The notes below the pieces were generated by a model. That model made no database searches. It saw nothing but the letters and a program-made list of their open reading frames with translations, and had not been told where the DNA came from. A program made the translations under genes and the position numbers. 64,000 bases of DNA. It comes from a virus. This document shows positions 401-62,432 of this stretch, piece by piece (position 1 is the first letter of the stretch; each line of letters starts with the position of its first letter). The stretch spans positions 1 to 64,000 of the IMG/VR virus record IMGVR_UViG_3300022890_000014; one strand, given 5' to 3'.

Positions 401-599
401 CTAGAAATATTAACCATGCGTAAGGCTTACGCAAACAACCAAGGGGTGAATTATGGAATTCAGCTTCGAGAGATGTTCTAAAAATTATGAAGTGGTAAAT
501 GGACACAGAAGACTGGCAGAAGAAGAAAAAGTAACGATAAATAAATAGGGTGTATTAGCGCCATATCCTATTTTTACAACTGAGGTATAGGAGATTGTT

Positions 600-920
600 A
601 TGAGTCAGATAAAATTCACATGTCCAAATACAAGACAGCAAGTAGTATGTGGCTGGGACAGAATGACACAGACGTGTCACCTCACGGTATACGGTCATGC
701 CTTGACCGAGGATGGCGAGAACGAAATTGTCTACTGTGAACTTTGTGGTGGTACGTCTGGCATCAAGCCAATGAAGATGTATCCAACTGTGATAATCACT
801 GTGCTAAAGAATCTGAAAGTCCATATGCCAAGGGAACTGCTCAGAACACTTCAGGATCATGTAGGGTGGGATCTCGGCAACGAGATTGTTGAGTTTACCG
901 CAAAAGATCCGTTAGAGTAG
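600..920 (+). CDS. Hypothetical protein
   Basis: 106-aa ORF with AGGAG SD upstream. Confidence 0.75.
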   Translation: MSQIKFTCPNTRQQVVCGWDRMTQTCHLTVYGHALTEDGENEIVYCELCGGTSGIKPMKMYPTVIITVLKNLKVHMPRELLRTLQDHVGWDLGNEIVEFTAKDPLE

Positions 921-1075
921 GTGTCGTAGAGAAGACTGTAAAAAATAGCAATGCGTAAGCCTTACGCAAACGGAGAAGATTCAATGGAAGCAATAGATTC
1001 ATTGTCTGGCAAAGAAGAGATGACTTCGAGAGAATCTACAGTCATCAGAAAACAGTGATGGGTTGGTAGTCTCTC

Positions 1076-1113
1076 AAGGGCAGCTAGGCTTTATGTTTGG
1101 TTGCCCTTTTTTT
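1076..1113 (+). terminator. Intrinsic terminator
   Basis: Stem AAGGGCAGCTAGGC/GTTTGGTTGCCCTT (with G-U pairs) followed by a T run. Confidence 0.7.
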
Positions 1114-1123
1114 ATAATAAAGT

Positions 1124-1141
1124 AGTATAAGAACTATAGTG
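1124..1141 (+). promoter_or_regulatory. Plus-strand promoter-like motif AGTATAAG-N5-TAGTG
   Basis: Same spacing as the other copies; lies just after a terminator and before ORF 1185. Confidence 0.55.
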
Positions 1142-1184
1142 TTAATAATATTCTAACAATTCTGTTAACCAAAGAGGTAAAGTT

Positions 1185-1715
1185 ATGAGTATACTAATCG
1201 GAATCATAGTGCTATGCAATCTAGTACTACTCTTCGGCATTCTGCTGAGAGTTCAAGATGTTAGAGATGAGCTAATGGAAGTGAAGGGAGAGCAGCGTAA
1301 GTACTGGAACAGCTACCTTAACTCGAATCCGAATGCTCACGAAATAAGTTTGATACCAGAAGATTACGACCTGTCAGAAGATGATATAGCTGACGCACTA
1401 AGCGAGACTGAGCAGTCTGACATGCGTAAGGCTTACGCACAGGATGAGAGTATAGGGAACCACAACGGAAGTCTATACAAGGGACTTGTTGAAAGAGACA
1501 GCAGGCTGAAGAACGCTAGGTTGAACACTTTGACTGAAAGTACAAAACTCAATTCCTGTAAAGAGATTCACGAAGAATCACTGGATGAACAAATGAGAAG
1601 AAATGGTTTTTCCGAAGAAGACATAAAGAAGATGACTGTGCTAGAAAAAGAAGACGCTCTTTTTGTGACACCACATACCGACAAGCTGGAGGTTGAAGAT
1701 GAGAATAAGTCCTAA
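1185..1715 (+). CDS. Hypothetical protein with N-terminal membrane anchor
   Basis: Hydrophobic N-terminus; contains an in-frame palindrome (MRKAYA). Confidence 0.75.
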   Translation: MSILIGIIVLCNLVLLFGILLRVQDVRDELMEVKGEQRKYWNSYLNSNPNAHEISLIPEDYDLSEDDIADALSETEQSDMRKAYAQDESIGNHNGSLYKGLVERDSRLKNARLNTLTESTKLNSCKEIHEESLDEQMRRNGFSEEDIKKMTVLEKEDALFVTPHTDKLEVEDENKS

Positions 1716-2274
1716 GATACTGATAGAGAAGGGTATTCCTCTACAGCATGCGGATATATGGAGGCAAGCCTTTGGTAGTTACAACAGAGCGGTCAAAAAC
1801 ATCACAGTCAAAATGTGGGAGAAATTAATAAGAGAAGCGTCAAAAGTAGATAAGCAATCTTTTATGTGGATAAGATGCATTCTTCACTTAGGGACCGTCA
1901 ACCTTGATGGAATAGACTTGAGTGATTTAGACCTAGCAAACATGTGTCTTAGGGATACTAGTCTTCGGAATGCAAACTTCCGTGGCTCTAAGTTAGAGTG
2001 GATCAATCTTGGAGATGTTGACATTGAAGGCACCGGATGTGAATGGAAGCTTATAGGAAATTGGAGATGCGTTGCCACTCCTGATAACGTGTGGGTTGGT
2101 TGTGAGGAGGCAACTAACAAAGAGACTCAAGATATGACACAGAAGAAAGTTCAAAACATTAGTATTAGTGGAATAGCGAAATCAGAGATAAATAGATGGT
2201 GGCGCATGCACGGCGATGAACTAAAGTCTATGGCTAGAAGGTGTGAGAGACAAGGTTGGCCCAAAGGATTCTAG
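1699..2274 (+). CDS. Pentapeptide-repeat protein, paralog of the ORF at 2-343
   Basis: NLDGI-DLSDL-DLANM-CLRDT-SLRNA-NFRGS repeats followed by VATPDNVWVGC...RWW..H.DELK, as in the upstream paralog. Confidence 0.8.
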   Translation: MRISPKILIEKGIPLQHADIWRQAFGSYNRAVKNITVKMWEKLIREASKVDKQSFMWIRCILHLGTVNLDGIDLSDLDLANMCLRDTSLRNANFRGSKLEWINLGDVDIEGTGCEWKLIGNWRCVATPDNVWVGCEEATNKETQDMTQKKVQNISISGIAKSEINRWWRMHGDELKSMARRCERQGWPKGF

Positions 2275-2277
2275 TAA

Positions 2278-5200
2278 CTAGTAACTTCCATCTTCACCGA
2301 GTCCGAACTCGGCACCGTACATAAACCCTGGAATTGGGTTGCTACCATGTATGCTGCTCTTACCACTAGTGGCAGCAGACTCCATGATTGTTTTCTGGAT
2401 TCCCTCTTGGCCTAGAGCAGCTAACCAATCAGGCTTTACCTGTGGCAGTTGTTTCACGCCATAGAGTTCCGGCTTAATCTTCATGGGGTTTCTTTTTACC
2501 TTTATTTTTTTACCAGTGAGCTTGTCTAGATCTGACAGGCTTATCTTGTGTCCCTTGTCGAATCCATAAGCAGACTCTTCCATCTTGAATCCCACAGCAT
2601 CTTCGGCAGTCATATCAGCCACAGGATTTTTGTTTATATCGTTAGCTAATGACCAAGAAACAATGTCACCTATAGAGAACTCATCGTTTAGACCTGGATC
2701 TTCCACTACTGCTGTATTAGTAGCTCCACGCACAACGACCTCAAAGTTCTTTCTTTTTAGGCTGTTGTCCCCATAGGCGTCCTGAAGCGACTGAACTAGG
2801 AAGTTTTGGGTTGCTCTCATTCCTTGTGTCTCAAGAACATCATAGGGGTCTTTGTATCCAGTGGTAAGTGGATCTCCCTTAGTAACCTTACTTCCTTTTC
2901 TAACTATAGGCTTTTGGCCTACTGGTGTGGTGTACTTCTTTCCAGACACAACAAAGTCGAATCCACCACCAGGAGATTCTACTATCTCTTCAACAACACC
3001 AGTCTTAGCAGATAGCATTGTTTTACCAGGAAGATTCTTCGGCATTTGTGTTAGCTGTTGTATTCTCTTGAAAGAGTCAACTTCTCCGTGTCCAGTCTTA
3101 GATGGCATATCTGAAGTGTTCCAGTACACTCCTCCTGTATGAAATTTCTTCATAGCCTGCTGAGTGAGAGGCTCTCCAATTGACTGACTTGCTATAATGC
3201 CAATAGGAGATCCATTTCCATACGCCTTTCCTTCCTCGTTTGGACCGTAACACTTAGCACATATGCCTACAGCGTTTTTGCACGTCATAGGAGACCTGAC
3301 CCTCATAGTCTTTATCTTTTTCCTCTTTTTGTCTGCAACTATCTGTGGGTCAACGACTCTGTTAGTGCCAATTTCATACCTGTCAATAATCTGAGGATCT
3401 GAGACATCCATCTCAATGCCTTCTTTATCTCCACAATCTGCATTACTTATTGTCTGGTCGCCAACAGCATTAAGCATAAGCTTGTTTTGGTATCCAGGCT
3501 GGGCAGTAGACAGTGCTCTACCGATCATTCCTGCTCTTGCACCATATGAAGAGCCTATGTATTCAGAGACACTAAGTCCTTCAGAGTAACTATTTTCAAT
3601 TGGAATAGGGATAGGTGCGCCAGTATGATCTGATACTATAGTAGGACCACTTATCTGCTGCATAACAGCGCCCTTCTTACTTGTAGCTCCAGACTCAAGC
3701 CATTCATACAGGTTTGAATTCTCTTTACCAAACTTATCTATAACAGGTACAAGCTCTCTGTCAACTATTTTTAGCATCTCTTTTGACTTAGCATCTCTAG
3801 ACTTACTGTCATCACCAGAAATGTTCTTCAGTCTTTTCATGATAGCTTTTCTTTTTGGATCACTAACTGGTCGTATATCATCCATAGTCATAGTCTGATT
3901 GGATGAATATCTATCGCCTAGTTTTCTAAGAGCATCTATGATGACTGAGGCTTTAACCTTGTCTTTCTCAGCTATTGCCATTGCAAGCTTGTTGACTTCC
4001 TTCTTCTTCCAGATAGTGTTGTAGTTCCTGTTTTCTTTAGGAAGCAGGTCATTGATAAGAACTCTACCAGCAACAGTTCTTTTGCCGTTGAACATGACTG
4101 AATCTTTGTAGCTGATGTCTTTATTGTCTATGTCTTTTTTTACATCGTCTACGCTTGCGTAAGCCTTACGCAGATTCTTTCCACCACCTACAGATAGCTC
4201 ATAGATTCCAAGTTGAGCCATGTCTTGAGGAAGGTAGTTCATTATCTTTGCATCGCCTATACGAGCAGGCGTAAACAAGATATTGCTAGGCTTCATCCTG
4301 TTTGCTTCTGCTACTGCCTCTGGGGTGACAGGAACATGAATGTTCATCTGGTCCCCGTCAAAGTCAGCATTGAATCCTTTGACAATCATATTTGGTATTA
4401 GAATAGTCTTGCCTGGAGTTACTTTGGCATTAAATGCCTGAACAGAGTACTTATGTAACGACGGCGCTCTATTCAATATTACAGGTCTCTCATTCATTGC
4501 TTCCTGAAGAGCTTTGTCTACTATGTCATCCTTCTTAACATTAAGTCTCTTTAGAGAGTCTGCCATTGATAGTCCGTATGTCCCAGTCATCTTGCGAACC
4601 AAGAATGGTCTAAATATCTTCTTAGCCATCTCTTTTGGTATAGCTACCTCATCTATTCCAAGATTGGGGTCTGGAGCAATGACACCACGACCTGTTGGCT
4701 CCTGCTGCTTTCTCCACATGTTTCTCTGAATATAACCAGTCTTAGGGGAGTCTCCAGAGAGAGTGGATATAATACCTTTGGCTGGTCTTGTTAGTGCTGT
4801 AGATCCGCTAACACCGACTAGTGCTTCTAATCCCTGGTATAGACTGCCACGGAGATCCTTCTTCATCTCATCATCCATATCATCCATTTCTTTTAGCTGA
4901 TTAGATGTGAGTCCAAGGTCTCTGTAAAGATAGTTGAGAGGGGAAACTCCGAGGTCTCCACTTTGTAATCGATAAACTGGGCGCATCTGCGGAGGAAGCA
5001 CAGCGACATTCTTTGTCATGTATGCTTCTTCTGGTCTTCTGTCTGCTTTCTCTAGGCTGTTGATGTATCGAAGTGTACGGTTATTAGAGTTTCTTGTTGA
5101 ACCCTTCGATCCTTTTATCATTGATTCAGCTTCAATCTTTCTTTCAGCCAAGTCAACGTTTCTAAGAAGGTTAGTTATTCCAGGCCCACCAGTAGCAATA

Positions 5201-8200
5201 AGCGTGTTATCTGGCTCAGTTATCGTATTGATAATCCTTGTCTTGTCGTCAACACCAGGAGCCTTTGCGTAAGCCTTACGCGTGATACCAGTCATGTCTA
5301 GAAGCTGATCTTTCGAGTAAGATTCCAAATCTTCCATAACTGTGCCGTCAGCAGCAACATACTTCTTCCCAGTTACAACACTCTTGTATGTTGAGTCATT
5401 GATACCTGTTAGTTTCTTGATTGGATCTTTGAATAGTGGGTTGGGAAGTTCTTCTGGAAGAGCTATATGCGTCCATCTATCACCCTTGACCCCACCAGTC
5501 ATCTCTGGATCGAACAAACCGCCAACATGTTCTTTGAGACCCTTGCCTCTGAGCATTTTTGGATCAGTTATCTCTCCAGCACTCTGACTAAGAACATCTT
5601 TGTCTCTGATTGGCTCAGTAGAGATCATACTTCCGTTCTTGGTCATGTTGACACCAGCACCGCGAAGCATGGCATCAAACTTGTTCCATGTAAACGGAAC
5701 TTGAGGAGGAGGTGTTTGTTGACCTAGTTGTATTGCTCTCCAGAACTCATCAGATTGCTCTGCCTTATGAGTAGCCATCTCTCTAAGATTATGATTAGCA
5801 CCATGAGATAACATAGACCATGTTGACAGTGGATCGAGAGCTTTAGATCCAGTCTTGCCACCAGTTACAGGTTGTTTGTTTAGGTCATAGCCTTCACCTG
5901 GTTGTCTAGCAGAAAATCCAGATTCCCCAGTCTTAACAAGCTTCATCATGTATTGCTTGCCAGTTGTTATCTCACCCATAGACTTGCCAGTCTCAGGATC
6001 AAATAGCTCTTCGGTCTGCTTCAAGCCTGCATCTTTAAGGAGCTTCATGACGCCAGCATGGTTATCAGAAGGCTTAAAGTTTTCGACCATAATAGGCTTG
6101 CCGCCCTGCTTGTCTGCGACTTTGCCTGTTAAGGTCTCAAGTATCTGAGATGGATTCGTTCTTCCTATTACACCCATTGGGTTGAGGATAACTTCGACTG
6201 CTTCGCCGTTTTTGAACTGAGGCATCTTTGAATCAGGAACTATGGCAGAAATGACGCCTTTATTTCCGTGGCGACCTGAGTTTCCAGACCAGTGACATTT
6301 TCCATTTCTTCTTGTATATAGTATATGGTTTTTTTCTAGCCTAACGCAATAAATCTCATCTTCATAGTATACATACGATTCTTTTTGCCCACTCTGATTC
6401 TTTGAATGTCCATGATTTATTGTGGGGTTATTTTTGAATCTATATACGTATACGTTAAAGCAATCTTTCCATCCATTTTCATACACGGTCTTTTTTATAT
6501 TACTTGCCATGCCAATATGCAAGGTTAGTCTTTGAAAGTCGTCAGCTAATTGCTTAGATGTAGTGCAATATGAATGACCAGTAGATGTCTCAGATCCATC
6601 TCCCCACATCATCCATCTGTATAGAATTTTCAGATATTTTTTATCTAAAGAGAATATCCAGTTTGGTATAAATTTTTGATCGCATAGTCCGAACTGAGAG
6701 AAATACTCTTGAAGTTGGCGTCCGTAAAATATATACCTGGTGTCATTAGAGCATGGAGTCATGCCCCAGAAATCCAATTCTTCTTCAAATAGGATTCTTG
6801 TATGAGGTTTAACTTGGTGTATTACTATCCCGAAGTTTCCCCTTTTTTCATCTTTAAAACAATTTCCTTCTGCAAGATATGCTCCTAGAATGAACATGAA
6901 TTGCTCCATCTCCATATCTATACTTGGCAGTCTACGTGTTCCGTTTTCGCTCTGTCCTGCCCTAACAGTAATGTCTTCATCTATTGAGAAGTAGTCTATG
7001 TCTTCACCAACCCAATTAGAGGCGTTATTTTGAAGTCTATACCTCTTTCCCTTGAGTTGATATGCCTCAGTAAGAGAGTGGTTTTTCGCCCCTCTTCTTT
7101 TTGCAAATACACTATGATTCTCAGTAACAGACATCGACACTTGAGTTGTCTCAACTCTATACATATTTCCAGCATGAGGATAAGCATATGCCTTGTCTAC
7201 AGGTACATACTCAAGGGTGTCTGTTTCTGCATGAAGTGACGCAACTCTATCCTTGGTTGTTACATCAGCTACGTTTTTCCAGCCACCTATGGTTAGAATT
7301 TCATGCTCTTTGTCAAAACAAAGTTTGTCGCCTACCTCAAGTTGCTTAGTTACCTTGATTTGTACCTTGTATTGTCTTGTGTTCTCAACAACATCCATAA
7401 CCTCACCAGGAGATTCATACTCCCATTTTATAGATGCATCCTTCTGAGGCTTTACTAATCCTCTACCAAGCTTCTTCAGAATTCTATCTTCACTAGTATC
7501 TTCAGATAAACGCATGGCTGCGAAGATTGGATCTCCGTAATTGAGAATTTGTCCTTTCTTCACAACACCATTAGCACTAAGCTTTGCAGACTGAGCATTA
7601 GTAATAGAGCCAGGAAATGCTGCCCCATACTTATCTCTGTCATAAATAAAATCGTCACCCTTTGGTGATTTCTCTTCTATCATTTGCTGATGGGTCATCT
7701 TTTTCTGGTAGCCTTCGCTAACCTTGATCCCATCTTCCATTGTGCTACCATCACCAGCCATGTAAGCAACGCTAGTGTTGAGACCTAATGCAAGTACTCC
7801 ATTTTTGGTAAAGTTTAGATCTCCAATGAGACCATTCTTCTCAACCTTGTCTCCAACTTCAACATTAGGAGTGTGATGAAAGAACGACTTTTCATTGAGC
7901 TTGAAGTTATTGTACAGCGGTACTGTTTTGATTCCATCTTTACCGGATATATCAACAGAGTCTTTACCAACTCTTTTTACTATACCTTTTATTGGTGATG
8001 TAGCAGAGAAAGCTCTACCTACTGAACTCTCTACAGTTTCTCCGCTACCAAAGGATGACTGAACAAGTGGAACTTCTGGTTTTAGAACAGGAGTTGTTTG
8101 CTCTGTATGCTTTGATGCAAGAAACGCCCTTCCTCCTGACATAGAATCTAGGAAAGGTACTTGTGCTGTAGCAAACGTAAACACGGACTGCTCAGAAGGT

Positions 8201-9840
8201 ATGATAAAATCTACTTCCGATATTGGAACAATCTTGTCTACACCTTTATGCTGAACCTTTACTTTGCCTTTATGCTTTCCTTTTACTTCTACTTTCTTAC
8301 CACCACCATCTGGGGTGAAATATTGAGAGGTTGTGGCATCTCTAAAGATTATCTTTCCGTCTTCAACCTTGAACTGATCAGGATAAGCAATCTTTTTGTC
8401 GTGAGACTGCACGGCTGATAATTGAACTGGCTTCATGGTTTTATGATTGATGTAGACGCTAGTTAACTCGTTGCCTCTTTTCTCAGCACCGATAGTTAAA
8501 TAGTTTACAGCACCAATCTTTGCAGACTCAGGGGTCTTGATTGGGTCTAGTTTTCCAAGCTCACTAGGATGCAGAGACCTAGCTTCCGTCTTAACCATAT
8601 CTAGGCTACCAAGAGCACCTTCGCCCATGATAGTAGTCTTGTACTGCTCATTGATAAGCTGAATAGGATTGTGTTGCTCTGAACGTTCAGATATAGCAAG
8701 GGAGTTGAAGATACCCTCGGTTAGTTTCTTTATGTGGGGAACAGCTAGAATATCTCTAACCTTATCCTTGCTGTCAATTGCTCTCTTCATTCTAGAAGCA
8801 AGCATCTTCCTGTTGACTTGGAATCTTTCCTTGAAGATGTCCTCTGCTGAATGCACACTTTTAAACATTAGGTTGTCTCTATCGTCAACCTTTTCTCTAC
8901 CTTGTTGTGTTGCTATCAGTCGAGATGAAGCATCCATCAGAGCGCCACTCTCAAGCTTTGCGTAAGGCTTACGCAGTGTGAGCTTTGTCATCTCTGGGTC
9001 AAGAGAGGTGGTGTCGAAGTGCTCGTTCAGCCTTTCGACAGCCTCTTCTTTTGTAATATCAGCAGGAGTGTCGAGGAACTTGTTGCTGAACTTAACTACG
9101 CTCTGGGCTGTCTTTCTTCCGTGAAGAGCTTTGTTAGCATCAGCTACTTCTTTTCCCCAAGACTCAGATATTTCTTCATGACTATGACCCATGCCAATTA
9201 GAACTGGATACAGTGGTATGTTGCTACTTCCAACTTGGATAAGAACGTTTCCTTTCTTATCGTCCATGTGGACTTCCATCTTTCTCCCTCTACCGCCAGC
9301 ACCTAAGTTGATCTGGGTTTTCGGAAGTCCGTTGGCTTGGTTTACCGTGTACACACCTGGCTTGAGTCTAAACTGAGTAGGGAGGTTCCACTCTGAACCT
9401 TTGACAATAAAGGTCTGCCTAGTAGTAAGCTTAGGAAGATCCATAAGCTTGACTTTCTTAGTGGTGTTAATAGTCTTTCCAGTTTCTTTATCTATAAGAG
9501 AGACTTCTCCATAGACTGGAACACCATAGGTTTTATCTTCTAGCTTAGTCTTTTTTTGAAGAGAGTAGTCGTTAGCAGATTTGTTGTCGTCTACCCATAC
9601 CTTATGAAGCTTAAGGGTGTGCTTCTCTCCTTCGACTGGAAAGACAGATGATATTCCTTCTACTGCACTAACCTTAATCTTCTCGAACTGATCGCGGGTA
9701 TCAGTGACATTTCCGTCTTCGACATCTTCAGTGTTATTTTTCTTTGCTTGTTTCTCAAGATAGGACACAAGCGTTTCGTCTCCTCCCCAATCTAGGAATG
9801 AGTAAGACGGGCTTGGGTGCCCATTGCTATATATCGACAT
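2278..9840 (-). CDS. Single-chain DNA-directed RNA polymerase, fused beta and beta' subunits, containing an intein
   Basis: Beta motifs: QFRLKPG, DPIKTPE, GDKL..SGRHGNKG, ILNPMGVIGRTN. Beta' motifs: VLPPQMRP, GRGVIAPDP, ILNRAPSLH, catalytic NADFDGD (4351-4371), GIIASQSIGEPLTQ..MKKFHTGG. ATG at 9840 preferred over TTG 9861. Confidence 0.95.
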   Translation of the reverse strand: MSIYSNGHPSPSYSFLDWGGDETLVSYLEKQAKKNNTEDVEDGNVTDTRDQFEKIKVSAVEGISSVFPVEGEKHTLKLHKVWVDDNKSANDYSLQKKTKLEDKTYGVPVYGEVSLIDKETGKTINTTKKVKLMDLPKLTTRQTFIVKGSEWNLPTQFRLKPGVYTVNQANGLPKTQINLGAGGRGRKMEVHMDDKKGNVLIQVGSSNIPLYPVLIGMGHSHEEISESWGKEVADANKALHGRKTAQSVVKFSNKFLDTPADITKEEAVERLNEHFDTTSLDPEMTKLTLRKPYAKLESGALMDASSRLIATQQGREKVDDRDNLMFKSVHSAEDIFKERFQVNRKMLASRMKRAIDSKDKVRDILAVPHIKKLTEGIFNSLAISERSEQHNPIQLINEQYKTTIMGEGALGSLDMVKTEARSLHPSELGKLDPIKTPESAKIGAVNYLTIGAEKRGNELTSVYINHKTMKPVQLSAVQSHDKKIAYPDQFKVEDGKIIFRDATTSQYFTPDGGGKKVEVKGKHKGKVKVQHKGVDKIVPISEVDFIIPSEQSVFTFATAQVPFLDSMSGGRAFLASKHTEQTTPVLKPEVPLVQSSFGSGETVESSVGRAFSATSPIKGIVKRVGKDSVDISGKDGIKTVPLYNNFKLNEKSFFHHTPNVEVGDKVEKNGLIGDLNFTKNGVLALGLNTSVAYMAGDGSTMEDGIKVSEGYQKKMTHQQMIEEKSPKGDDFIYDRDKYGAAFPGSITNAQSAKLSANGVVKKGQILNYGDPIFAAMRLSEDTSEDRILKKLGRGLVKPQKDASIKWEYESPGEVMDVVENTRQYKVQIKVTKQLEVGDKLCFDKEHEILTIGGWKNVADVTTKDRVASLHAETDTLEYVPVDKAYAYPHAGNMYRVETTQVSMSVTENHSVFAKRRGAKNHSLTEAYQLKGKRYRLQNNASNWVGEDIDYFSIDEDITVRAGQSENGTRRLPSIDMEMEQFMFILGAYLAEGNCFKDEKRGNFGIVIHQVKPHTRILFEEELDFWGMTPCSNDTRYIFYGRQLQEYFSQFGLCDQKFIPNWIFSLDKKYLKILYRWMMWGDGSETSTGHSYCTTSKQLADDFQRLTLHIGMASNIKKTVYENGWKDCFNVYVYRFKNNPTINHGHSKNQSGQKESYVYYEDEIYCVRLEKNHILYTRRNGKCHWSGNSGRHGNKGVISAIVPDSKMPQFKNGEAVEVILNPMGVIGRTNPSQILETLTGKVADKQGGKPIMVENFKPSDNHAGVMKLLKDAGLKQTEELFDPETGKSMGEITTGKQYMMKLVKTGESGFSARQPGEGYDLNKQPVTGGKTGSKALDPLSTWSMLSHGANHNLREMATHKAEQSDEFWRAIQLGQQTPPPQVPFTWNKFDAMLRGAGVNMTKNGSMISTEPIRDKDVLSQSAGEITDPKMLRGKGLKEHVGGLFDPEMTGGVKGDRWTHIALPEELPNPLFKDPIKKLTGINDSTYKSVVTGKKYVAADGTVMEDLESYSKDQLLDMTGITRKAYAKAPGVDDKTRIINTITEPDNTLIATGGPGITNLLRNVDLAERKIEAESMIKGSKGSTRNSNNRTLRYINSLEKADRRPEEAYMTKNVAVLPPQMRPVYRLQSGDLGVSPLNYLYRDLGLTSNQLKEMDDMDDEMKKDLRGSLYQGLEALVGVSGSTALTRPAKGIISTLSGDSPKTGYIQRNMWRKQQEPTGRGVIAPDPNLGIDEVAIPKEMAKKIFRPFLVRKMTGTYGLSMADSLKRLNVKKDDIVDKALQEAMNERPVILNRAPSLHKYSVQAFNAKVTPGKTILIPNMIVKGFNADFDGDQMNIHVPVTPEAVAEANRMKPSNILFTPARIGDAKIMNYLPQDMAQLGIYELSVGGGKNLRKAYASVDDVKKDIDNKDISYKDSVMFNGKRTVAGRVLINDLLPKENRNYNTIWKKKEVNKLAMAIAEKDKVKASVIIDALRKLGDRYSSNQTMTMDDIRPVSDPKRKAIMKRLKNISGDDSKSRDAKSKEMLKIVDRELVPVIDKFGKENSNLYEWLESGATSKKGAVMQQISGPTIVSDHTGAPIPIPIENSYSEGLSVSEYIGSSYGARAGMIGRALSTAQPGYQNKLMLNAVGDQTISNADCGDKEGIEMDVSDPQIIDRYEIGTNRVVDPQIVADKKRKKIKTMRVRSPMTCKNAVGICAKCYGPNEEGKAYGNGSPIGIIASQSIGEPLTQQAMKKFHTGGVYWNTSDMPSKTGHGEVDSFKRIQQLTQMPKNLPGKTMLSAKTGVVEEIVESPGGGFDFVVSGKKYTTPVGQKPIVRKGSKVTKGDPLTTGYKDPYDVLETQGMRATQNFLVQSLQDAYGDNSLKRKNFEVVVRGATNTAVVEDPGLNDEFSIGDIVSWSLANDINKNPVADMTAEDAVGFKMEESAYGFDKGHKISLSDLDKLTGKKIKVKRNPMKIKPELYGVKQLPQVKPDWLAALGQEGIQKTIMESAATSGKSSIHGSNPIPGFMYGAEFGLGEDGSY
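6280..7320 (-). mobile_element. Intein (347 aa) with LAGLIDADG-type homing endonuclease in the RNAP beta GDK..GRHGNKG motif
   Basis: Starts CFDKEHEILT, ends HILYTRRNGKCHWSGN, +1 residue Ser. Block B VTENH. Endonuclease motifs ILGAYLAEG and YRWMMWGDG. Removal restores GDKLSGRHGNKG. Confidence 0.92.
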
Positions 9841-9927: not shown

Positions 9928-10185
9928 ATGCCTATTTCTGTAAAGGATAGTGTTATGGTATTCGGAAGTGGTGGAGTATTCGATAATGGATCGGGAAGTA
10001 GTCAGTCTGGAGGATTGGTTGGGGCTGCCAGTAGCGATAATTGGCAACTGAAAGACGATGCTGGAGGGTTGGCCCTAGGAGTCTTCAGCGAACTGCTAAA
10101 GAAGGCAGCGCCCAAAAAGAAGGCAGCGCCCAAAAAGAAGGCAGCGCCCAAAAAAAAGACCGCCCCTAAAAAGGTCAAGAAGTAA
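9928..10185 (+). CDS. Small protein with Lys/Ala/Pro-rich histone-H1-like tail
   Basis: C-terminus KKAAPKKKAAPKKKAAPKKKTAPKKVKK; downstream of a + promoter motif; start uncertain. Confidence 0.55.
   Translation: MPISVKDSVMVFGSGGVFDNGSGSSQSGGLVGAASSDNWQLKDDAGGLALGVFSELLKKAAPKKKAAPKKKAAPKKKTAPKKVKK
10099..10170 (+). repeat. 18-bp tandem repeat (AAGAAGGCAGCGCCCAAA) x3 plus one degenerate copy
   Basis: Directly visible; encodes KKAAPK units. Confidence 0.9.
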
Positions 10186-10379
10186 CTGAGTAAGTATATT
10201 ATTGAGGTGTTAGCATTTCTAGTATTGGCTGCAATAAAGGAGGAAACGGATAGTGCTGTTTCTTCAAAGCACGAAGAAGCAGCGATGAGATGGAATGTTT
10301 GGCAACACCTCATATAGAGTGAACACTGTGTTCGCTGAAGACAATGCGTAAGGCTTACGCAAGCGCGTTGTTTTCTTTA

Positions 10380-11695: not shown

Positions 11696-11766
11696 ATTAT
11701 ACCACACGATAGTTGCTGCGTAAGGCTTACGCAGAGCAATACTAAGTGGGTATAAGACTGATAGAG
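11696..11766. promoter_or_regulatory. Divergent promoter pair with a palindrome between them
   Basis: TGTGGTATAAT (-, 11696-11706), palindrome 11717-11733, GGTATAAG-ACTGA-TAGAG (+, 11749-11766). Confidence 0.65.
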
Positions 11767-13336: not shown

Positions 13337-13357
13337 AATACATCCTTTGCGTAAGGC

Positions 13358-14872: not shown

Positions 14873-14933
14873 GATATATCCTTTGCGTAAGGCTTACGCA
14901 TCCATCTGAATACGTAAGCCTTACGGTTACTAA

Positions 14934-16877: not shown

Positions 16878-16901
16878 GTATAAATCCTAAATGCGTAAGG
16901 C

Positions 16902-19591: not shown

Positions 19592-19613
19592 ATCTTTTCC
19601 TTATGCGTAAGGC

Positions 19614-21489: not shown

Positions 21490-21590
21490 GCCAGGCGAGA
21501 GTAGAACTTGAGACCGCTACAAAACAGCGGGATACAAATAGTTTTTTTAGCATGTATTTTTTTATTGCGTAAGCCTTACGCATGGTATAT

Positions 21591-22723: not shown

Positions 22724-22754
22724 CTGCGTAAGCCTTACGCAAACGGAGATAGAT

Positions 22755-28552: not shown

Positions 28553-28560
28553 TGTAGTTC

Positions 28561-38392: not shown

Positions 38393-38437
38393 CTATTATC
38401 CTTGCGTAAGGCTTACGCGTCCTGGTTAGGATTGTGT

Positions 38438-39955: not shown

Positions 39956-39998
39956 ACTTATCCTCTGTATTGTTTTGCGTAAGGCTTACGCATGAATT

Positions 39999-40628: not shown

Positions 40629-40658
40629 TATTTATATCCTCTTTGTATGTTTGAGGAT

Positions 40659-40669
40659 ATTTTATCACA
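40659..40669 (-). promoter_or_regulatory. Extended -10 promoter TGTGATAAAAT
   Basis: About 30 nt upstream of ATG 40628. Confidence 0.55.
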
Positions 40670-40736
40670 CTGTGGAAGATAGGGCAAGTAGCAGTATTAT
40701 TATGTGTAGTGTTGTTATGCGTAAGGCTTACGCAGT

Positions 40737-44357: not shown

Positions 44358-44387
44358 TAGAAACTCCGCTTGCGTAAGCCTTACGCA

Positions 44388-46205: not shown

Positions 46206-46228
46206 GATTATTTCCTATTGCGTAAGGC

Positions 46229-46711
46229 TTACGCACTCATTATTGGAACCATAACTGATGAGGTGTTCCCAGACATGCTAACAATAACAAACTCAACCTC
46301 TATTGCATCAGCAGATACTATATTTAGCTTAGATAGTCTAGCACTATCAAGCATTTCGTCTGGATCTTCGATGCCTTCTTCTAGTTGAGAAGTAGAGATG
46401 TCTTTGTTTGTTTTCGATACAGCTATGTTAAGTTTATTTCTCAGATCTCCCAAGTTCTCTTCGGAGAAAGACTCATCCATTAACTGTATTCCACCACCAC
46501 CATAATCTAGATCGGTTATATCAGATCCAGGATTAGTCATGAATGTACTAAGCCACTTCTGAACAAGAAGAGTATACTTAGTTATCTTTCTAGGGTTATT
46601 TCCCATGCCTGCTTCAATGAAGTAGCTGTTCTCACTTATGTACATACCGTCGTCATTTACTCCGGCATCTGCTTTGACCTTTGGGGTCAAGAACTCTATA
46701 TCAATTGTCAT
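46229..46711 (-). CDS. gp25/gpW-like baseplate protein
   Basis: LVQKWLSTFMTNPGS...DYGGG; position upstream of the J-like gene; stop supplied by the palindrome. Confidence 0.65.
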   Translation of the reverse strand: MTIDIEFLTPKVKADAGVNDDGMYISENSYFIEAGMGNNPRKITKYTLLVQKWLSTFMTNPGSDITDLDYGGGGIQLMDESFSEENLGDLRNKLNIAVSKTNKDISTSQLEEGIEDPDEMLDSARLSKLNIVSADAIEVEFVIVSMSGNTSSVMVPIMSA

Positions 46712-48699: not shown

Positions 48700-48741
48700 G
48701 CGTAAGCCTTACGTGTAGTGTTATCTAAAAAATATATAGAT

Positions 48742-48786: not shown

Positions 48787-49671
48787 TTAGTATATCTTCA
48801 TTCTATTTGCGCATCTTATGTTTAGTATGGATTTATGATTTGGATTAACACCTGGCCTTGGGTGTCTCTCATCTTCTTCAGGGGGAACACCGAGCATTTC
48901 GTTGTAAAACATAGATTCATTATGTAAAGAAGGAAGTTTACCAGATGCATGCGCATCTATTGATAACTTGTAGTGAGGTTTTGGATACGGATCTATATAA
49001 GAAATATCCTCCCATGCTTTCCAGCACAAAAGGTCTTTATCATTATCAGCACCTTTTATAAACAGAGACTCCTCTCTTTTGCCAAGTCTCCACCAATCAT
49101 TAATAAAGAATTCTTTTACAGGATCTTTCTTTCTTAATGATTTAGCCAACATTTCTTTTACTTCGTCGCCAGTGTATCCCCAAGGAACACCTATGCCGAA
49201 CTTGTTGCCTATTGATATAGTGTCTATAAGTGGCGAGCCTTTCCATGCCTGCATGCCCATAGACTTAGTTTCAGTTGAAGTTTTAAATCTAAGAACCTGA
49301 ACCATTAACTCTCTGTGGGATTCATTTAGTTTTTCACTACTAACTAGACCGAGACTATGCATTGACACCATGCTTGCGTAGTTAAGTGTGGTAGTGGTTA
49401 AGTTTTGCATCCTTGCAATGTCTGCATCTGAATGATTAGTCTTGCAAATCTTATCTAGCCACACACTACTGGAGTTGCGCTCACCACCCTCGAAATATTC
49501 AAACTCGCTTCCGTTAATCATTTCTTTTTTCTTAGAATTTTCCACTTTGCTACCTATGAAGTTAGACATAGTTTCTTGTTCTCTAACTACCTGGCTTTCA
49601 TATTTCTCTCGGTTTTCAGGATTAAAGAAGTATGTTGTGCTTGCGTAAGGCTTACGCATTCCATCAGACAT
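48787..49671 (-). CDS. Hypothetical protein
   Basis: AGGAG SD; in-frame palindrome near the N-terminus (MRKPYA). Confidence 0.7.
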   Translation of the reverse strand: MSDGMRKPYASTTYFFNPENREKYESQVVREQETMSNFIGSKVENSKKKEMINGSEFEYFEGGERNSSSVWLDKICKTNHSDADIARMQNLTTTTLNYASMVSMHSLGLVSSEKLNESHRELMVQVLRFKTSTETKSMGMQAWKGSPLIDTISIGNKFGIGVPWGYTGDEVKEMLAKSLRKKDPVKEFFINDWWRLGKREESLFIKGADNDKDLLCWKAWEDISYIDPYPKPHYKLSIDAHASGKLPSLHNESMFYNEMLGVPPEEDERHPRPGVNPNHKSILNIRCANRMKIY

Positions 49672-49768: not shown

Positions 49769-49854
49769 TGGTAAGGGCAGGATTTGAACCTGCATCTCCA
49801 TGCACTGGGACTTTGCAAGTACCGTATGGCGCATAACCATTATGCTACCCTTCC
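49769..49854 (-). tRNA. Non-canonical tRNA-like RNA, GCA (Cys) loop on an elongated anticodon arm
   Basis: GGAAGGG-TA-GCAT/AATGGTT/ATGC-G-[32-nt arm with TTGCAAA loop]-AGAT-GCAGG/TTCAAAT/CCTGC-CCTTACC-A; no encoded CCA. Confidence 0.7.
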
Positions 49855-50772: not shown

Positions 50773-51333
50773 TTATTGTTCACTCATGTTTTTTGAGAAG
50801 CAGTCAAGGCACATGGCTTCGTACTCTCCTTTTCCTCCTAGAACTATATCGCCTTTGTCTTCTGGGTTTTTCCTAAAGCTTCTTGTGGCATCCGAGTTAC
50901 ATCTTGTGCATACAGCAGTGAGCTTAACAATCTTGTCTGCTACAGCGAATACATCTGATGAAGTCTCAAATGGTTTTCCGTCGCTCTTCAGGTCTAACAT
51001 CGAGACGTAGACGTTAGAGCCTGTTCTTGATAGCCATACGAGAACTTCTGACAGATTGGGTATGAACTGGGCTTCATCTATGAATACATCCTTTATGCCA
51101 TACTTCATGGAGCCAAATATATCATAGATTCCCTCTGCCTTATCCACAAGTCTAGCCAGAACCTCCTCTCCATTATGCGAGATAATCTTCTCTGGATCAT
51201 ATCTGCGATCTATCCTAGGTTTGATAACTAGCACGGTCCTGTTGCCACGAACCGATCTTCTGTACGCAGATAGTAGATGTGTGGTTTTCTCTGAGAACAT
51301 AGGTCCGGTGAACACAGTTATCTTTCCTGACAT
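50773..51333 (-). CDS. tdk: Thymidine kinase
   Basis: TGPMFSEKTT, FIDEAQF, KLTAVCTRC, GGKGEYEAMCLDC; start at MSGKIT. Confidence 0.95.
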   Translation of the reverse strand: MSGKITVFTGPMFSEKTTHLLSAYRRSVRGNRTVLVIKPRIDRRYDPEKIISHNGEEVLARLVDKAEGIYDIFGSMKYGIKDVFIDEAQFIPNLSEVLVWLSRTGSNVYVSMLDLKSDGKPFETSSDVFAVADKIVKLTAVCTRCNSDATRSFRKNPEDKGDIVLGGKGEYEAMCLDCFSKNMSEQ

Positions 51334-51391
51334 AAGAATCCTCTCTGCGTAAGGCTTACGCATGGCTTGTTTCAGGTGAGTAATTCACAGT

Positions 51392-51794: not shown

Positions 51795-51816
51795 AGTCGC
51801 AACATGCGACTTTTTT
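51795..51816 (+). terminator. Intrinsic terminator
   Basis: AGTCGCA-ACA-TGCGACT followed by TTTTT. Confidence 0.7.
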
Positions 51817-52855
51817 AGTACATAACTTTTCCTGCATCCAGTATGTCTTTTATCTCTGATGCAATAAACCTGTGCTCTTTTCTCACCTCTGCTTCACTTA
51901 TGCCTAGTCTATTAGATATTTCCTTCACTCCATCGAGAGTTTCTTTTCCCTCGAAGTCATCAAAAGTATGTTCCATAACTAGTTGCTGCTTCGGTGTTGC
52001 ACTGTGATACGTAGTAAAAAGAGCTTCAACTGCTGGGTCTGTGTTGCTTGCACCTATCGGACCTAGGTTGTCATCAAGCACCAAGTCTTGTCTTAGCTCC
52101 TGATCTATGGCTTTTAGGTCAGATATTTTCCATCCAAGTTCTTGACGCAGTTCTTGAATTGTGGGGTCTCGATTCTTTTTATCTTTTAGTAGTTCGTATG
52201 CGTTCTGATATACGCCTACTTTAGCTGCCCTTGGTTCAGGTATACTTCCCACGTTCTGATATTTATACCCATACCTGTGAATCTTAGACAGTTGATGCCA
52301 AACATGAGTGTTAAGTGCCGCACCCTTGTTTGGGTTATATGTGTTTATTCCGTGCCTAAGCAGTCTCATTCCTTCTGCTTCTACAGCAGATTTTGGGAGA
52401 GGAGAGTTCTTGACCCAAGGACGAACCCTGCTTCGTACAAGAGGAGTGAAGGAATGCATAAGCTTCCTAAGTGCTCTCTTGTCACCAGTCTTGTTGTACG
52501 ACTTCCAGAGTTCCATCTCTTCATCTTTAGACATACTTGCAGCAGTTTTAATTAGGGAAGGATAGATGCTGTCTTCAATAATGCACTTACCGTTAGCTTC
52601 CTTAGTAAACTCGCATAAAGCCCAATCCTTAGAGGAGTCACCAAGAAACCGTGTGTTCTCATCACACACAACTCTTCCACCATCGAATAGCTCCGAGGCA
52701 AGTTTCATTGTGTGCGTAAGGCTTACGCGGTCACTGCTCCACACCACAAGAGCGCCCTTGCTTGTATCTTCAGGTAGATACATTGCAGACTTCTCTATGC
52801 CGTCCTCTTCTGTCACAAGAAGACCAGCAGTGTGTTTATTCATATATGTATTCAT
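51815..52855 (-). CDS. Sigma-70-family RNA polymerase sigma factor (SigB/FliA-like core) with N-terminal extension
   Basis: EEMELW..GDKRALRKL..FTPLV (region 1.2/2.1), EGMRLLRHGINTYNPNKGAALNTHV (2.2-2.4), RDPTIQELRQELG (3), EISNRLGISEAEVR (4.2). Confidence 0.88.
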   Translation of the reverse strand: MNTYMNKHTAGLLVTEEDGIEKSAMYLPEDTSKGALVVWSSDRVSLTHTMKLASELFDGGRVVCDENTRFLGDSSKDWALCEFTKEANGKCIIEDSIYPSLIKTAASMSKDEEMELWKSYNKTGDKRALRKLMHSFTPLVRSRVRPWVKNSPLPKSAVEAEGMRLLRHGINTYNPNKGAALNTHVWHQLSKIHRYGYKYQNVGSIPEPRAAKVGVYQNAYELLKDKKNRDPTIQELRQELGWKISDLKAIDQELRQDLVLDDNLGPIGASNTDPAVEALFTTYHSATPKQQLVMEHTFDDFEGKETLDGVKEISNRLGISEAEVRKEHRFIASEIKDILDAGKVMY

Positions 52856-55778: not shown

Positions 55779-55838
55779 ACTCTCTCCTGCGTAAGCCTTA
55801 CGCAGCAACGCAAGGCTTACATGATTCGTCTTATACAG

Positions 55839-56942: not shown

Positions 56943-56975
56943 TGAATATTCCTTATGCGTAAGGCTTACGCAGTA

Positions 56976-60578: not shown

Positions 60579-60598
60579 TCAATCTACATGCGTAAGCC

Positions 60599-60937
60599 TT
60601 ACGCATTCCTTTTTTTGGTTGGGATTTTTCTTTTTCTTAGCCCTTGATTTCTAGGCTTTGCGGCAGGAGTTATAGTGATTGGTCCGGCTTTTGCCTGAGT
60701 CTCAACCAACTTTCTTGTAGCAGCGTCTTTCTTTTGCTGGTCTCTATTAGCTCTTGGACTAGCAAACTTTATGTACTCTTTCTGAGCTTCCCTTATGTTC
60801 TCTGATGACACTCCAGTACTAGAAGCAGATGCGACAAATACAGCATGTGATATTTTCTCATTCTGTAAATCGCTTAATGCCCTGTGTGCAAGCTCTTCCA
60901 TAAGGGTTCCTGGGACAACTGGGCCATACGTCCCCAT
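60599..60937 (-). CDS. Probable tail assembly chaperone (second)
   Basis: Immediately upstream of the tape measure gene; stop supplied by the palindrome. Confidence 0.5.
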   Translation of the reverse strand: MGTYGPVVPGTLMEELAHRALSDLQNEKISHAVFVASASSTGVSSENIREAQKEYIKFASPRANRDQQKKDAATRKLVETQAKAGPITITPAAKPRNQGLRKRKIPTKKRNA

Positions 60938-60978
60938 TAGAACTAGCCTAGATACAGACCACCCTTCAGGGGACTCTA

Positions 60979-61815
60979 TCAGTTTTTTATTTTTTCTTCC
61001 GTATCAATCTTATTCTCAATGCTTCTCTCAAGTAGAGATTGCTTGGAACTAAGCCTGACAAGCATTTGTTGCCCAAGGTTGTTCATTCTCTTCAGTTTTT
61101 TATTGAACGCTTCAACTACTTCTGCACTATTCTCTTTACTACTGGGGGTGCCCATATCTTTGCCATCTAGCCTTGTGAGACTAAACACCATTTGAAATAG
61201 CGATTGTTTATTAGAGTAGTCGTTGGAGTTGGCTACGACACCAGCTTCAACAAGCTCCGCTATCCGTTCGTTAATATATGAGATTTCTCCACCATCAAGA
61301 CTCTGCCACGTAGTTCCGATTCTTCCTACTGGAATATCCTTAATTATCTTTCCACCGACCATGTATGACAAGATCTCACCATCAGTAATTTCAATCATAG
61401 ACTTGTCTTCTAGTAGAGTTCCGCAGTGTTTGCATAACACAGAGCCGTCTTCTAGTTTCTCAAGTGGATTGTTTTCATCTTCCTTGTCGTCTTCTTCAGC
61501 AAAGATACTTGGTATTCCTTCAGGTGAATTGATTTTATTGTCAGCAACAGTGCTAACCATTCCGTCTAAACCGAAGCCTACATCGCCACCATCCAAAGAC
61601 ACGGTTTCTGGAGTATGCATTTCTCCATAATCAGTGTCTTTTTCGTACTGACTACCGCCTCTTGCTGGCTGCATTCTGCTTTGGTCTTGCCCAATAGCCT
61701 CGCCGATTCTGCTAGCAAGACCCTCAGAATGCTCACTCATCTTTTCTGACATCTCAGCTATCTTCTTACTACTTAGAAAGCTGGAACCTGGAAGATTACT
61801 GTTACTATTTCCCAT
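60979..61815 (-). CDS. Probable tail assembly chaperone
   Basis: Acidic N-terminus, CKHC, chaperone-like C-terminus ending KIKN; synteny. Confidence 0.5.
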   Translation of the reverse strand: MGNSNSNLPGSSFLSSKKIAEMSEKMSEHSEGLASRIGEAIGQDQSRMQPARGGSQYEKDTDYGEMHTPETVSLDGGDVGFGLDGMVSTVADNKINSPEGIPSIFAEEDDKEDENNPLEKLEDGSVLCKHCGTLLEDKSMIEITDGEILSYMVGGKIIKDIPVGRIGTTWQSLDGGEISYINERIAELVEAGVVANSNDYSNKQSLFQMVFSLTRLDGKDMGTPSSKENSAEVVEAFNKKLKRMNNLGQQMLVRLSSKQSLLERSIENKIDTEEKIKN

Positions 61816-61841
61816 AACTAGACTCTCCTTAATTTGGTAAC

Positions 61842-61876
61842 ATTATATCATATATAGTGGTATAATATATATAGAG
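61842..61876. promoter_or_regulatory. Divergent promoter pair
   Basis: TATGATATAAT (-, 61842-61852) and GGTATAAT-ATATA-TAGAG (+, 61859-61876). Confidence 0.6.
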
Positions 61877-61913
61877 GAAGAAATAATTCTAACATAATAA
61901 GGGGTGTTTATCA

Positions 61914-62411
61914 ATGGCTGCAAATTACAAGGAATTACTATCCAGTGTGTACACAGTCTGGGAAGGAATTGACGAACTAACTGGAATGTTCTTTAGTGGA
62001 GTATCTGGCCTTAGCGAGTGCCATGAAGATAATGATGAGCTAAAAAAAGTATGGAGACTCATATTTGGGCATGGTGATTATAATGGGCTGGTGAATGAGT
62101 ACGAAGATGCCTACATGTCGTGGCCTAAGCCGGTAAACAAGGGCACTAGAATAGACCGTGTGCGCAACTACAACCTTAGATTAGATCAGTCCTACGAGCG
62201 ACTACAGGATATGATCGAGACTATGCACTACCTATCAAATACAGTGGTTCTGGATATAGTTGGAGACTATGACTGGCACGAAAGCATTAACAGTGCAATT
62301 ACTATCCTTGTTGACTCGCTACATGAGAGGTTGTGCAGACCTGATAACGAAACTATCTTCCGTGTCAAGAGAAAATACAAGAAACTAATGAATGAATTGG
62401 GTGTCGCGTAA
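61914..62411 (+). CDS. Hypothetical protein
   Basis: 165 aa; stop supplied by the palindrome on the + strand. Confidence 0.7.
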   Translation: MAANYKELLSSVYTVWEGIDELTGMFFSGVSGLSECHEDNDELKKVWRLIFGHGDYNGLVNEYEDAYMSWPKPVNKGTRIDRVRNYNLRLDQSYERLQDMIETMHYLSNTVVLDIVGDYDWHESINSAITILVDSLHERLCRPDNETIFRVKRKYKKLMNELGVA

Positions 62412-62432
62412 GGCTTACGCAAAGGAAAAGAC

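Follow-up and report, generated by a model that had tools for sequence, protein, structure and literature searches.

The window analyzed here comprises bases 1–64,000 of a 150,744-bp linear virus record (IMG/VR record IMGVR_UViG_3300022890_000014; 41.5% G+C, CheckV completeness 82%; the whole record is termed G000), and a 17-bp palindrome recurs along it from one end to the other. A simple gene map based on open reading frames (ORFs), with starts refined by Shine-Dalgarno (SD) sequences, assigned 170 genes to the record and 91–93% of its length to coding DNA. The phage encodes a fused β-β′ multisubunit-type RNA polymerase (RNAP), a single 2521-aa ORF with β-like and β′-like parts at 2278–9840 on the − strand, together with a sigma-like protein, a DnaE-type polymerase, an AEP primase-MCM helicase, SNF2 and UvrD helicases, a PD-(D/E)XK nuclease, a capsid protein and a large terminase. 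The counterpart of the RNAP region in Vibrio phage D181 is spread over several genes that are separated by homing endonucleases. The phage is present in at least 16 DNA runs of 2017–2019 labelled “salt lake metagenome”, and no RNA runs containing it are listed among the public runs. No close relative was found among GenBank phages (megablast with 24 kb gave no match), and a locus search with the primase protein as the single query gave no related loci.

The palindrome, TGCGTAAG-S-CTTACGCA (S denotes G or C), occurs 36 times in the window when up to two mismatches are allowed, from 417 to 62421; 28 copies are exact, seven have one mismatch and one has two. Dinucleotide shuffles of the window (n = 100) contained no copies. 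An earlier note on this DNA had counted at least 36 near-perfect copies with a centre that is always G or C (24 G and 12 C on the + strand), and our scan recovered these numbers at exactly the coordinates that it implied. Extending the scan to the whole record showed that the array continues: 76, 82 and 87 copies were found in the 150.7 kb with up to one, two and three mismatches, respectively, and none was expected. Within a genome all arm bases are invariant, and only the centre varies, restricted to G or C. Isolated half-sites were at chance level (8 vs. 3.9 expected), hence it is the full dyad only that recurs. The copies are real DNA. Contigs of four runs that are not flagged as possible sources of the record cover all 12 copies in 24000–43999, with no letter change or indel, and the same copies are present in separately assembled ENA contigs at 99.7–100% identity. 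Lack of support from reads, which the earlier note had listed among the outcomes that would refute it, thus does not apply. The exact motif is private to this phage: a scan of IMG/VR yielded single matches only (three), and 596 Gb of cellular genomes yielded 68 single matches in unrelated taxa, with ~70 estimated by chance.

Copies occur between and within genes of both strands. Among the 82 copies with up to two mismatches, 53 lie at co-directional gene junctions, eight in divergent and two in convergent intergenic regions, and 19 in called ORFs, of which ~14–16 are truly internal. At 16 of the 53 co-directional junctions the upstream gene ends on the TAA of the site, and at 25 of the 53 the next start follows within 16 nt of the site, with AAGGA immediately behind it. 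We read this tight fit of stop codon, site and SD sequence as a site packed into a compact genome, not as a translation signal.

In the window, where copies are exact unless a mismatch is given, the first (417–433) is intergenic, 19 nt before a small + strand ORF. Junctions of the + strand hold the copies at 952–968 (SD and ATG next), 21566–21582 (directly before a promoter-like box, GGTATAAG), 22725–22741 (ATG 13 nt on) and 62405–62421 (one mismatch; the upstream gene's stop lies within the site and an ATG 11 nt on). At − strand junctions, the upstream gene's stop lies within the copies at 16892–16908, 19604–19620, 26108–26124 (one mismatch), 46219–46235 and 60589–60605, and at 13348–13364 the site's TAA is the stop of 13358–14872, with the next ATG 11 nt on. 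An ATG follows 11 nt behind the − junction copies at 14884–14900 (which has a degenerate copy with three mismatches beside it, at 14911) and 24806–24822, 10 nt behind 38403–38419 (one mismatch), 9 nt behind 55788–55804 and 13 nt behind 56956–56972. The copy with two mismatches (48699–48715) abuts the ATG of 46708–48699, that at 44371–44387 occupies the entire space from stop to SD, that at 40718–40734 lies 2 nt after the stop of 40737–44357, and that at 30455–30471 sits in a 112-nt intergenic region. The remaining − junction copies are at 10345–10361, 27302–27318, 29034–29050 and 39976–39992, together with a tandem pair 28 nt apart at 34019–34035 (one mismatch) and 34047–34063. Two copies fall in divergent intergenic regions, one 15 nt before a GGTATAAG promoter-like box (11717–11733) and one 12 nt before the ATG of 50773–51333 on the − strand (51346–51362).

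Eight copies lie in called ORFs of the window. One is in frame within ORF 1185–1715 on the + strand (1423–1439, read as RKAYA), and three are in frame within the RNAP gene (4156–4172, LRKAYA; 5266–5282, one mismatch, TRKAYA; 8959–8975, LRKPYA). Others are in frame within a 1440-aa gene at 34070–38392 (36636–36652), within a 1206-aa gene at 40737–44357 (42454–42470, one mismatch) and near the 5′-end of the sigma-like gene at 51815–52855 (52713–52729, one mismatch), all on the − strand. The last (49642–49658) is at the 5′-end of ORF 48787–49671 (−), the start of which is uncertain. Internal copies use only the two stop-free frames, R-K-A/P-Y-A or C-V-R/S-L-T. The RNAP copy at 8959 aligns without gaps with LGKRFT of phage D181, and a copy in DnaE (two mismatches, SVRLTR) aligns without gaps with IVKESK of Thermus (Taq) Pol III α, within the finger domain. 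In a 1154-aa gene the site stands at the same codons in G000 and in the relative L021 (VRKPYA and VRKAYA, respectively); L017, a relative with a different site sequence, has its site in the same variable loop, read as MHEPHA, and the array-less relative L019 has GQKINT there. As judged from these alignments, the testable in-gene copies are shown to have been made in place by substitution, in loops of long proteins that tolerate change. It is the DNA motif that sets the protein sequence and not vice versa, which excludes the insertion of a mobile unit and shows selection on nucleotides. In-frame start codons after intragenic copies occur at about the rough chance frequency, with no SD before them. 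The earlier observation that copies enter coding sequences, in genes of both strands, is thus upheld, with in-place substitution in the two testable cases.

Spacing was the second property claimed in the earlier note, which saw under-dispersion in that 22 of 35 gaps fall within 1.1–2.1 kb. We obtained the same count; gaps in the window average 1771 nt with a coefficient of variation (CV) of 0.49, the smallest being 28 nt (the tandem pair at 34019/34047) and the largest 3693 nt. A uniform null gave a CV of 0.97, and none of 20,000 shuffles reached the observed value. When the copies of the window were restricted to its 56 junctions, with the intragenic copies kept fixed, the CV was 0.86 (P = 5e-5) and the maximal gap 6.9 kb (P = 0.0015). 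Results were similar genome-wide. There, gaps average 1833 nt with a CV of 0.44 and a maximum of 3896 nt, and only two are shorter than 500 nt, whereas dealing the junctional copies over the 169 real junctions, with intragenic copies fixed, gave a CV of 0.89 and a maximal gap of 8.4 kb; the observed values were reached in 0 of 20,000 trials (P < 5e-5). Gene boundaries, which the note had named as a possible trivial cause of the spacing, therefore do not explain it.

Whether a junction is occupied varies with the distance to its nearest other copy: 4 of 51 junctions were occupied at 400–800 nt, 13 of 35 at 800–1200 nt, 11 of 16 at 1200–1600 nt, and 15 of 15 at 1600–2400 nt. Among genes longer than 2.4 kb, six of ten have internal copies, and these fill gaps that would otherwise be long. 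We show that (i) even spacing is actively kept, copies being shunned within ~800 nt of one another and gaps above ~3 kb being filled, inside a gene if needed; and (ii) as supported by the junction-restricted test, density and spacing are under selection, with gene boundaries being no explanation.

Close relatives found through their capsid protein (61–73% identity) or through a ParB-like protein (24–32% identity) carry, with one exception, arrays of the same architecture with half-sites of their own (GCATGAG, GCATAAG, GCATGCG or CGTAAG). The motif TGCATGAG-S-CTCATGCA is present in 11 copies in 13 kb of L017/L018 and in 13 copies in 19.7 kb of L025, GCATAAG-S-CTTATGC in five copies in 7.8 kb of L027, and GCATGCG-C-CGCATGC in two copies in 3.3 kb of L026. 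A looser core, CGTAAG-S-CTTACG, occurs in 5–7 copies in 12 kb of L021 and in 10 copies in 20.8 kb of L024. Whenever the half-site differs between relatives, the two arms differ symmetrically, and the inner AG-S-CT stays the same. Spacing is likewise regular (CV 0.34–0.64), L025 has a tandem pair 27 nt apart that resembles the one at 34019/34047, and site positions are partly common between genomes, as upstream of the capsid gene in three of the three array-bearing genomes with that region. An exact IMG/VR scan with the L017-type motif gave single chance matches only. The sequence of the array thus turns over quickly between these genomes.

Other relatives have no array. L019 and L028, one 57.6-kb contig with a capsid 63% identical, showed none in the 42 kb examined; plain SD spacers and classical hairpin-plus-T terminators were found instead. 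In this contig AAAGATCTTT was considered as an alternative array and discarded, as its four exact copies are no more than those of other 10-mers, are mostly intragenic and are unevenly placed. Within its replication module, at L028:14739–15839, there are a TnpB/IS605 OrfB gene and an HNH gene. No array was seen in 14 loci of ≥5 kb from more distant relatives (capsid 36–48% identical), and no palindrome array in 48 kb of Vibrio phage D181, the RNAP of which is ~30% identical. The array is therefore derived, being confined to a narrow clade, and this gene order does not require it.

Some public contigs join one copy to another. In Logan contigs of run X6, and in one of X9, a site is followed by the flank of a different copy, tens of kb away, in direct or inverted orientation. 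In the window, the site edges 26125, 27319, 36634, 38403 and 39992 are joined to G000 71541, 56974, 109531, 113983 (inverted) and 46236, respectively. Among the loose contig ends shown, five of seven map to the flank of another copy, and two match nothing in the record. Inter-copy joins had a share of 0.51 in X6 and 0.05 in X9, and of 0 in X12 and X13. Joined reads must exist, because distinct copies seem to be without shared 31-mers (the stretch checked was ~24 bp). Confinement of the joins mainly to one library fits template switching in vitro, which would give library chimeras at the hairpin; recombination in vivo could also produce them. The site at G000 84660–84676 (outside the window; L014:12675) has a C at its centre in three assemblies and a G in a fourth, from strains 99.9% identical. 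This flip is one of 23 single-nucleotide differences in 21.6 kb, and the chance that one of them falls on one of the nine centre bases is ~0.01. The flip, too, shows a turnover of copies, through inversion or conversion.

A promoter-like box, (T)GGTATAAR, which resembles an extended −10 element, was observed 34 times vs. 12.7 expected, with 21 of the 34 in the intergenic 9% of the genome (11749, 20864, 21591 and 51409 in the window, and 17 more intergenic places in G000). Array-bearing relatives have the box unchanged in their replication modules, on the coding strand in every case (six in L024, four in L025 and three in L027), and it is not enriched in the array-less relative. The box probably serves as promoter for the polymerase or sigma factor that the phage itself encodes.

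We consider it slightly more probable than not that the 17-bp dyad is a duplex-DNA binding site for a phage-encoded, sequence-specific dimeric protein, selected for genome-wide coverage. Protein binding is suggested by the dyad symmetry, the conservation of the sequence within a genome and the symmetric switching of half-sites between relatives; the dyad, its invariant arms, the free G/C centre and the concerted switching together point to a sequence-specific reader, either a cognate dimer on the duplex or an enzyme acting on a hairpin. The earlier note had proposed a dyad site for a dimeric protein selected for density. Its genome-wide, orientation-free and even distribution stood the tests, whereas binding is still argued from symmetry, conservation and switching. 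On this account the phage would have been selected to keep a site within ~1–2 kb of every point of its chromosome, and a cognate reader would co-evolve with its sites. A ParB-like dimer would load at each dyad through a helix-turn-helix (HTH) and would then slide or spread over the adjoining 1–2 kb, as KorB does from O_B, covering the whole genome. Such a coat might serve compaction or organization of replicating DNA, shielding or self-marking, or the global timing of transcription.

Which protein would do this can be proposed only tentatively. The best candidate is a predicted orphan protein of the ParB/Noc/KorB fold, encoded at G000 81986–83620, outside the window. It has 544 aa, a DGHRR..A box (GxxRxxA in ParB) that is invariant in nine homologues, and an HTH-like segment (helices 190–196 and 203–220) with the ParB-like motif T..EI...G..S..I.QR. 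The significant PDB matches of its AlphaFold (AF2) model (pLDDT 82) are all Noc, ParB-CTP/CDP, Spo0J and KorB (E 2e-5 to 4e-4), over ~250–295 columns that cover the N-domain and the DNA-binding domain of truncated Noc, ParB and KorB structures; its match to a ParB-like PHROG is at 5.8e-11. The protein further has a coiled-coil insert within its N-domain and a long helical tail rich in K and E. Its homologues are full-length with 24–32% identity, and the gene is present in G000 and four array-bearing relatives, syntenic in four array-bearing genomes and within a conserved replication module in all those examined; among GenBank phages one weak match only was found, and a word search gave no relative. 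The 13-bp dyad on which KorB loads also has an S at its centre, and from there KorB can slide as far as 1.5 kb (PMC11790492); a working range of this kind would explain why the sites recur every 1–2 kb.

ParB and Noc owe their specificity to a few residues in and near the recognition helix. In the two genomes with CGTAAG the putative start of this helix is S-T, and in the three with CAT..G it is D-H, D-T or G-H, so that it appears to track the half-site; with n = 5 and related lineages, this is suggestive only. The two proteins that the earlier note had offered from within the window gained no specific support: the XRE-like ORF at 23450–23794 has a sub-threshold HTH_3 match only, and the ORF at 9928–10185 has no family match. 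A ParABS partition system was rejected, as PF13614 and PF01656 detected no ParA-type partner in the 150.7-kb, 82%-complete record, although the controls matched in 14 of 14 genomes. The phage ParBs that activate 5mYOX are without a DNA-binding domain and belong to a different class (PMC13229309).

Several observations weigh against a ParB-like reader on duplex DNA. The array-less relative (L019/L028) also encodes a ParB-like orthologue with DGHRR and HTH, so the gene is not sufficient for an array and may have another job. The Pfam ParB_N match of the candidate is below threshold, and the ENxxR nucleotide motif is not recognizable by eye in the alignment, although the box II arginines are kept; CTP-dependent clamping by the candidate is thus uncertain from its sequence, and ParB folds can also bind ATP or GTP (PMC12704722). 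Symmetric changes of half-site would be equally expected of a hairpin. The stereotyped place of 41 of the 53 co-directional copies would also suit an intercistronic RNA element, and the inter-copy joins in one sample hint at DNA-structure or recombination activity.

The last three points bear on two structural explanations. In one, which we consider unlikely, the palindrome acts as a DNA hairpin or cruciform in single-stranded or supercoiled DNA and is recognized by a structure- and sequence-specific enzyme of replication or recombination; it could mark where the AEP primase-MCM primes or loads on the lagging strand, act as a Chi-like stop for the PD-(D/E)XK nuclease and UvrD-type helicase, or be a recombination hotspot. 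Since the palindrome is identical on both strands, such a signal would work whichever way the fork or nuclease travels, in line with even, orientation-free spacing, and 1–2 kb is the size of an Okazaki fragment. Compensatory arm changes keep a 7-bp stem and a G-S-C loop, the arrays are accompanied, within one module, by conserved genes for the primase-MCM, the PD-(D/E)XK nuclease and UvrD, contigs of independent samples join copy flanks exactly at the site edge in both orientations, and the centre base flips between nearly identical strains. The hairpin is weak, however (−5.9 kcal/mol as RNA, with a 3-nt loop, and less as DNA), and every stem base is invariant within a genome, beyond what structure alone needs; imperfect copies mostly lose pairing on one side and are not compensated. 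Furthermore, the joins are abundant in one library only, as template switching in vitro would give, no resolvase, integrase or Y1 transposase is detectable in the record, and the array-less relative has the same replication genes. The other structure would form in mRNA, between a stop codon and the next SD, as a processing site, a stabilizer against exonucleases or a modulator of translational coupling, read by a sequence-specific RNA-binding protein or nuclease. The crowding of 53 of 82 copies at co-directional junctions, with the stop within the site in 16 and a start close behind in 25, is what this would predict, and the absent polarity (sense-strand centre base C in 30 and G in 22 of these copies, P = 0.33) does not exclude it, because both orientations give nearly the same RNA hairpin; action only as an oriented RNA hairpin or processing site, which the earlier note had taken as fatal to its proposal, does not apply. 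Still, we find an RNA element quite unlikely. The ~14–16 internal copies lie within essential long genes (RNAP, DnaE, primase and the 1154-aa gene), in which cleavage would do harm and a signal meant for junctions would make no sense, eight copies lie in divergent promoter regions, and even spacing irrespective of gene density is unexpected of a per-junction signal. The RNA hairpin is inconspicuous in its native context (z −0.07 to −1.0), sense-strand variants of the terminal pair are C-A mismatches (10) over G-U wobbles (2), and plain SD sequences serve to express this gene order in the array-less relative. No Rfam 15 family matches the palindrome, the only match in the window being a tRNA at 49769–49854. 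Recognition of RNA hairpins is mostly the reverse of an invariant stem with a variable loop centre, which also counts against this explanation.

Two further explanations concern transcription and repeat spread. A signal for the phage transcription machinery (for pausing, termination or anti-termination, or as an operator on which a global regulator of the phage polymerase acts) would suit a phage with an RNAP of the multisubunit type and a sigma-like protein of its own; some copies have the promoter-like box directly beside them, on one side or the other, and the lack of box enrichment in the array-less relative suggests that array and transcription system may go together. We regard such a signal as very unlikely, since a T-run stands behind the site on the sense strand in 4 of 53 copies vs. 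a background of 10.7%, scans for terminator-like and sigma-70-like promoter sequences gave shuffle-level results, the palindrome is directionless, and in-gene copies would pause or stop the transcription of essential genes. The box sequence is constant across relatives while the palindrome changes, which makes the conserved polymerase an unlikely reader. An intrinsic terminator was rejected on the same data, as the G+C-rich hairpin followed by a T-run that defines it was not found. A selfish or neutral repeat, REP/MITE-like or homogenized by gene conversion, that spreads through tolerated positions is highly improbable. Copies are identical within a genome and different between relatives, as in concerted evolution, they prefer intergenic spots, and centre flips and inter-copy joins show them interacting; nevertheless, the intragenic copies are not insertions (gapless vs. 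homologues), all of them are in frame without indels although 17 bp is not a multiple of three, and even spacing with gap-filling is unexpected from random spread. No RAYT/Y1 transposase (PF01797), integrase or resolvase was detectable in the 82%-complete record. The REP/RAYT or MITE-like class was rejected on the missing PF01797 match and the gapless in-gene copies.

Among published arrays, the one most like this is a 17-bp dyad repeat found in mycobacteriophages of Cluster O (Corndog, Catdawg and Ryadel), a 7-3-7 repeat (TGTTCGGNNNCCGAACA) in 31–34 copies, of unknown function, for which a dimeric DNA-binding protein was predicted by the authors (PMC4351075, PMC6439249). As here, an apparently lytic phage carries >30 copies of a 17-bp dyad genome-wide, the arms are invariant and the centre is variable, and orientation has no meaningful relation to transcription; about one third of the Cluster O copies are in coding regions, the host is without the repeat, and a ParB-like protein is encoded. 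The present array shares the description of this type, with >30 copies, inter- and intragenic, without polarity and absent from cellular genomes beyond chance. In contrast, the arrangement is 8-1-8 here, neither the sequences nor the phages are related, and the Cluster O phages are siphoviruses of ~70 kb with 65% GC. Their repeat is reported to be denser at one genome end and not evenly spaced, a single sequence is common to their five genomes, in contrast to the half-sites peculiar to each close relative here, and no spacing statistics or test of in-place origin have been published for them.

KorB/O_B of the IncP plasmid RK2 offers the nearest way of working (PMC11790492): a ParB fold with an HTH, a dyad with a central S (TTTAGC-S-GCTAAA) scattered over the replicon, and sliding over ~1.5 kb, which matches the spacing here; KorB is also among the significant structural matches of the candidate. 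The differences are that RK2 is a plasmid with 12 sites, the ParA partner IncC and the clamp-locking KorA, whereas the phage has ~80–100 sites, no detectable ParA and non-canonical nucleotide motifs in a reader that is predicted only. ParB-parS and Noc-NBS likewise place a dimeric HTH protein on a 14–16-bp palindrome, with ~70 scattered sites in the case of Noc, and Noc and ParB are the best fold matches of the candidate. Unlike the array, however, parS clusters near the origin, NBS are not evenly spaced or written into genes, and both are of even length; the phage protein differs in its N-domain coiled-coil insert and K/E-rich helical tail. Orphan ParB-fold proteins are common in phages, with roles that are largely unknown (PMC12704722).

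Stoperators, which co-evolve with their binding protein between subclusters, are a further parallel. In Cluster A mycobacteriophages they number from 20 to thirty-odd copies, often at junctions, and are bound by one phage protein (as summarised in PMC4351075). They are asymmetric 13-mers oriented with transcription in temperate phages with an immunity repressor, whereas the array is a perfect dyad without polarity; no integrase is detectable in the 150.7-kb record, and the stoperator class, which requires an asymmetric, oriented site, was rejected on the dyad and its 30:22 centre. SAS/ESAS of Cluster K mycobacteriophages are also repeated directly upstream of starts, but they are asymmetric and strictly start-linked, whereas here a start is found within 16 nt for only 25 of the 53 junction copies, and many copies lie inside genes or at a distance from any start. 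REP/BIME elements with RAYT are identical extragenic palindromes at gene 3′-ends in either orientation; unlike the array, REPs are 20–40-nt imperfect hairpins, Y1-mobilised, never in frame within genes and not evenly spaced. Of the analogies drawn in the earlier note, parS and stoperators are apt as ways of working, while HIP1 and matS add little.

Some features elsewhere in the record were also noted. The half-site TGCGTAAG heads direct repeats beside a full site at G000 77967–78023 and 139107–139179, both outside the window; at 139.1 kb there are two ~28-bp units, the two places are alike, and the 78-kb place lies directly after the primase-MCM gene. These places could be an iteron-like region or an origin. 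The 1154-aa gene (G000 120156–123620, outside the window, upstream of the capsid module) contains an intein with a LAGLIDADG domain at residues ~206–551, and its orthologues in relatives (~750–830 aa) are without it. An inverted repeat of ~265 bp with 85% identity (G000 74059–74310 and 135686–135950) lies in two large intergenic regions outside the window. The tRNA at 49769–49854 is on the − strand (Rfam 47 bits) and was not reported by ARAGORN.

The Cluster O array, the sole published phage-wide dyad array, has been without a function for a decade. The present genome is an unusually clean case, with a measured spacing rule (avoidance below ~0.8 kb and obligatory filling above ~1.6–2.4 kb), sites forced into coding loops, four or more natural specificity variants and an array-less relative as natural control, and it makes a long-standing puzzle directly testable by simple assays. 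If a sliding clamp does load at the dyads, their spacing would report the clamp's working range in vivo, and phages would join plasmids (KorB) in using a ParB clamp for whole-replicon control, not partition. It is possible rather than probable that this clade of large salt-lake phages coats or marks its whole chromosome from ~80–100 evenly spaced loading sites of an orphan, partner-less ParB-type clamp, with site and reader switching together between close relatives, so that each lineage would have a private “genome identity code” that may tell self from host or competitor DNA or may organize replicating DNA as a kind of phage chromatin.

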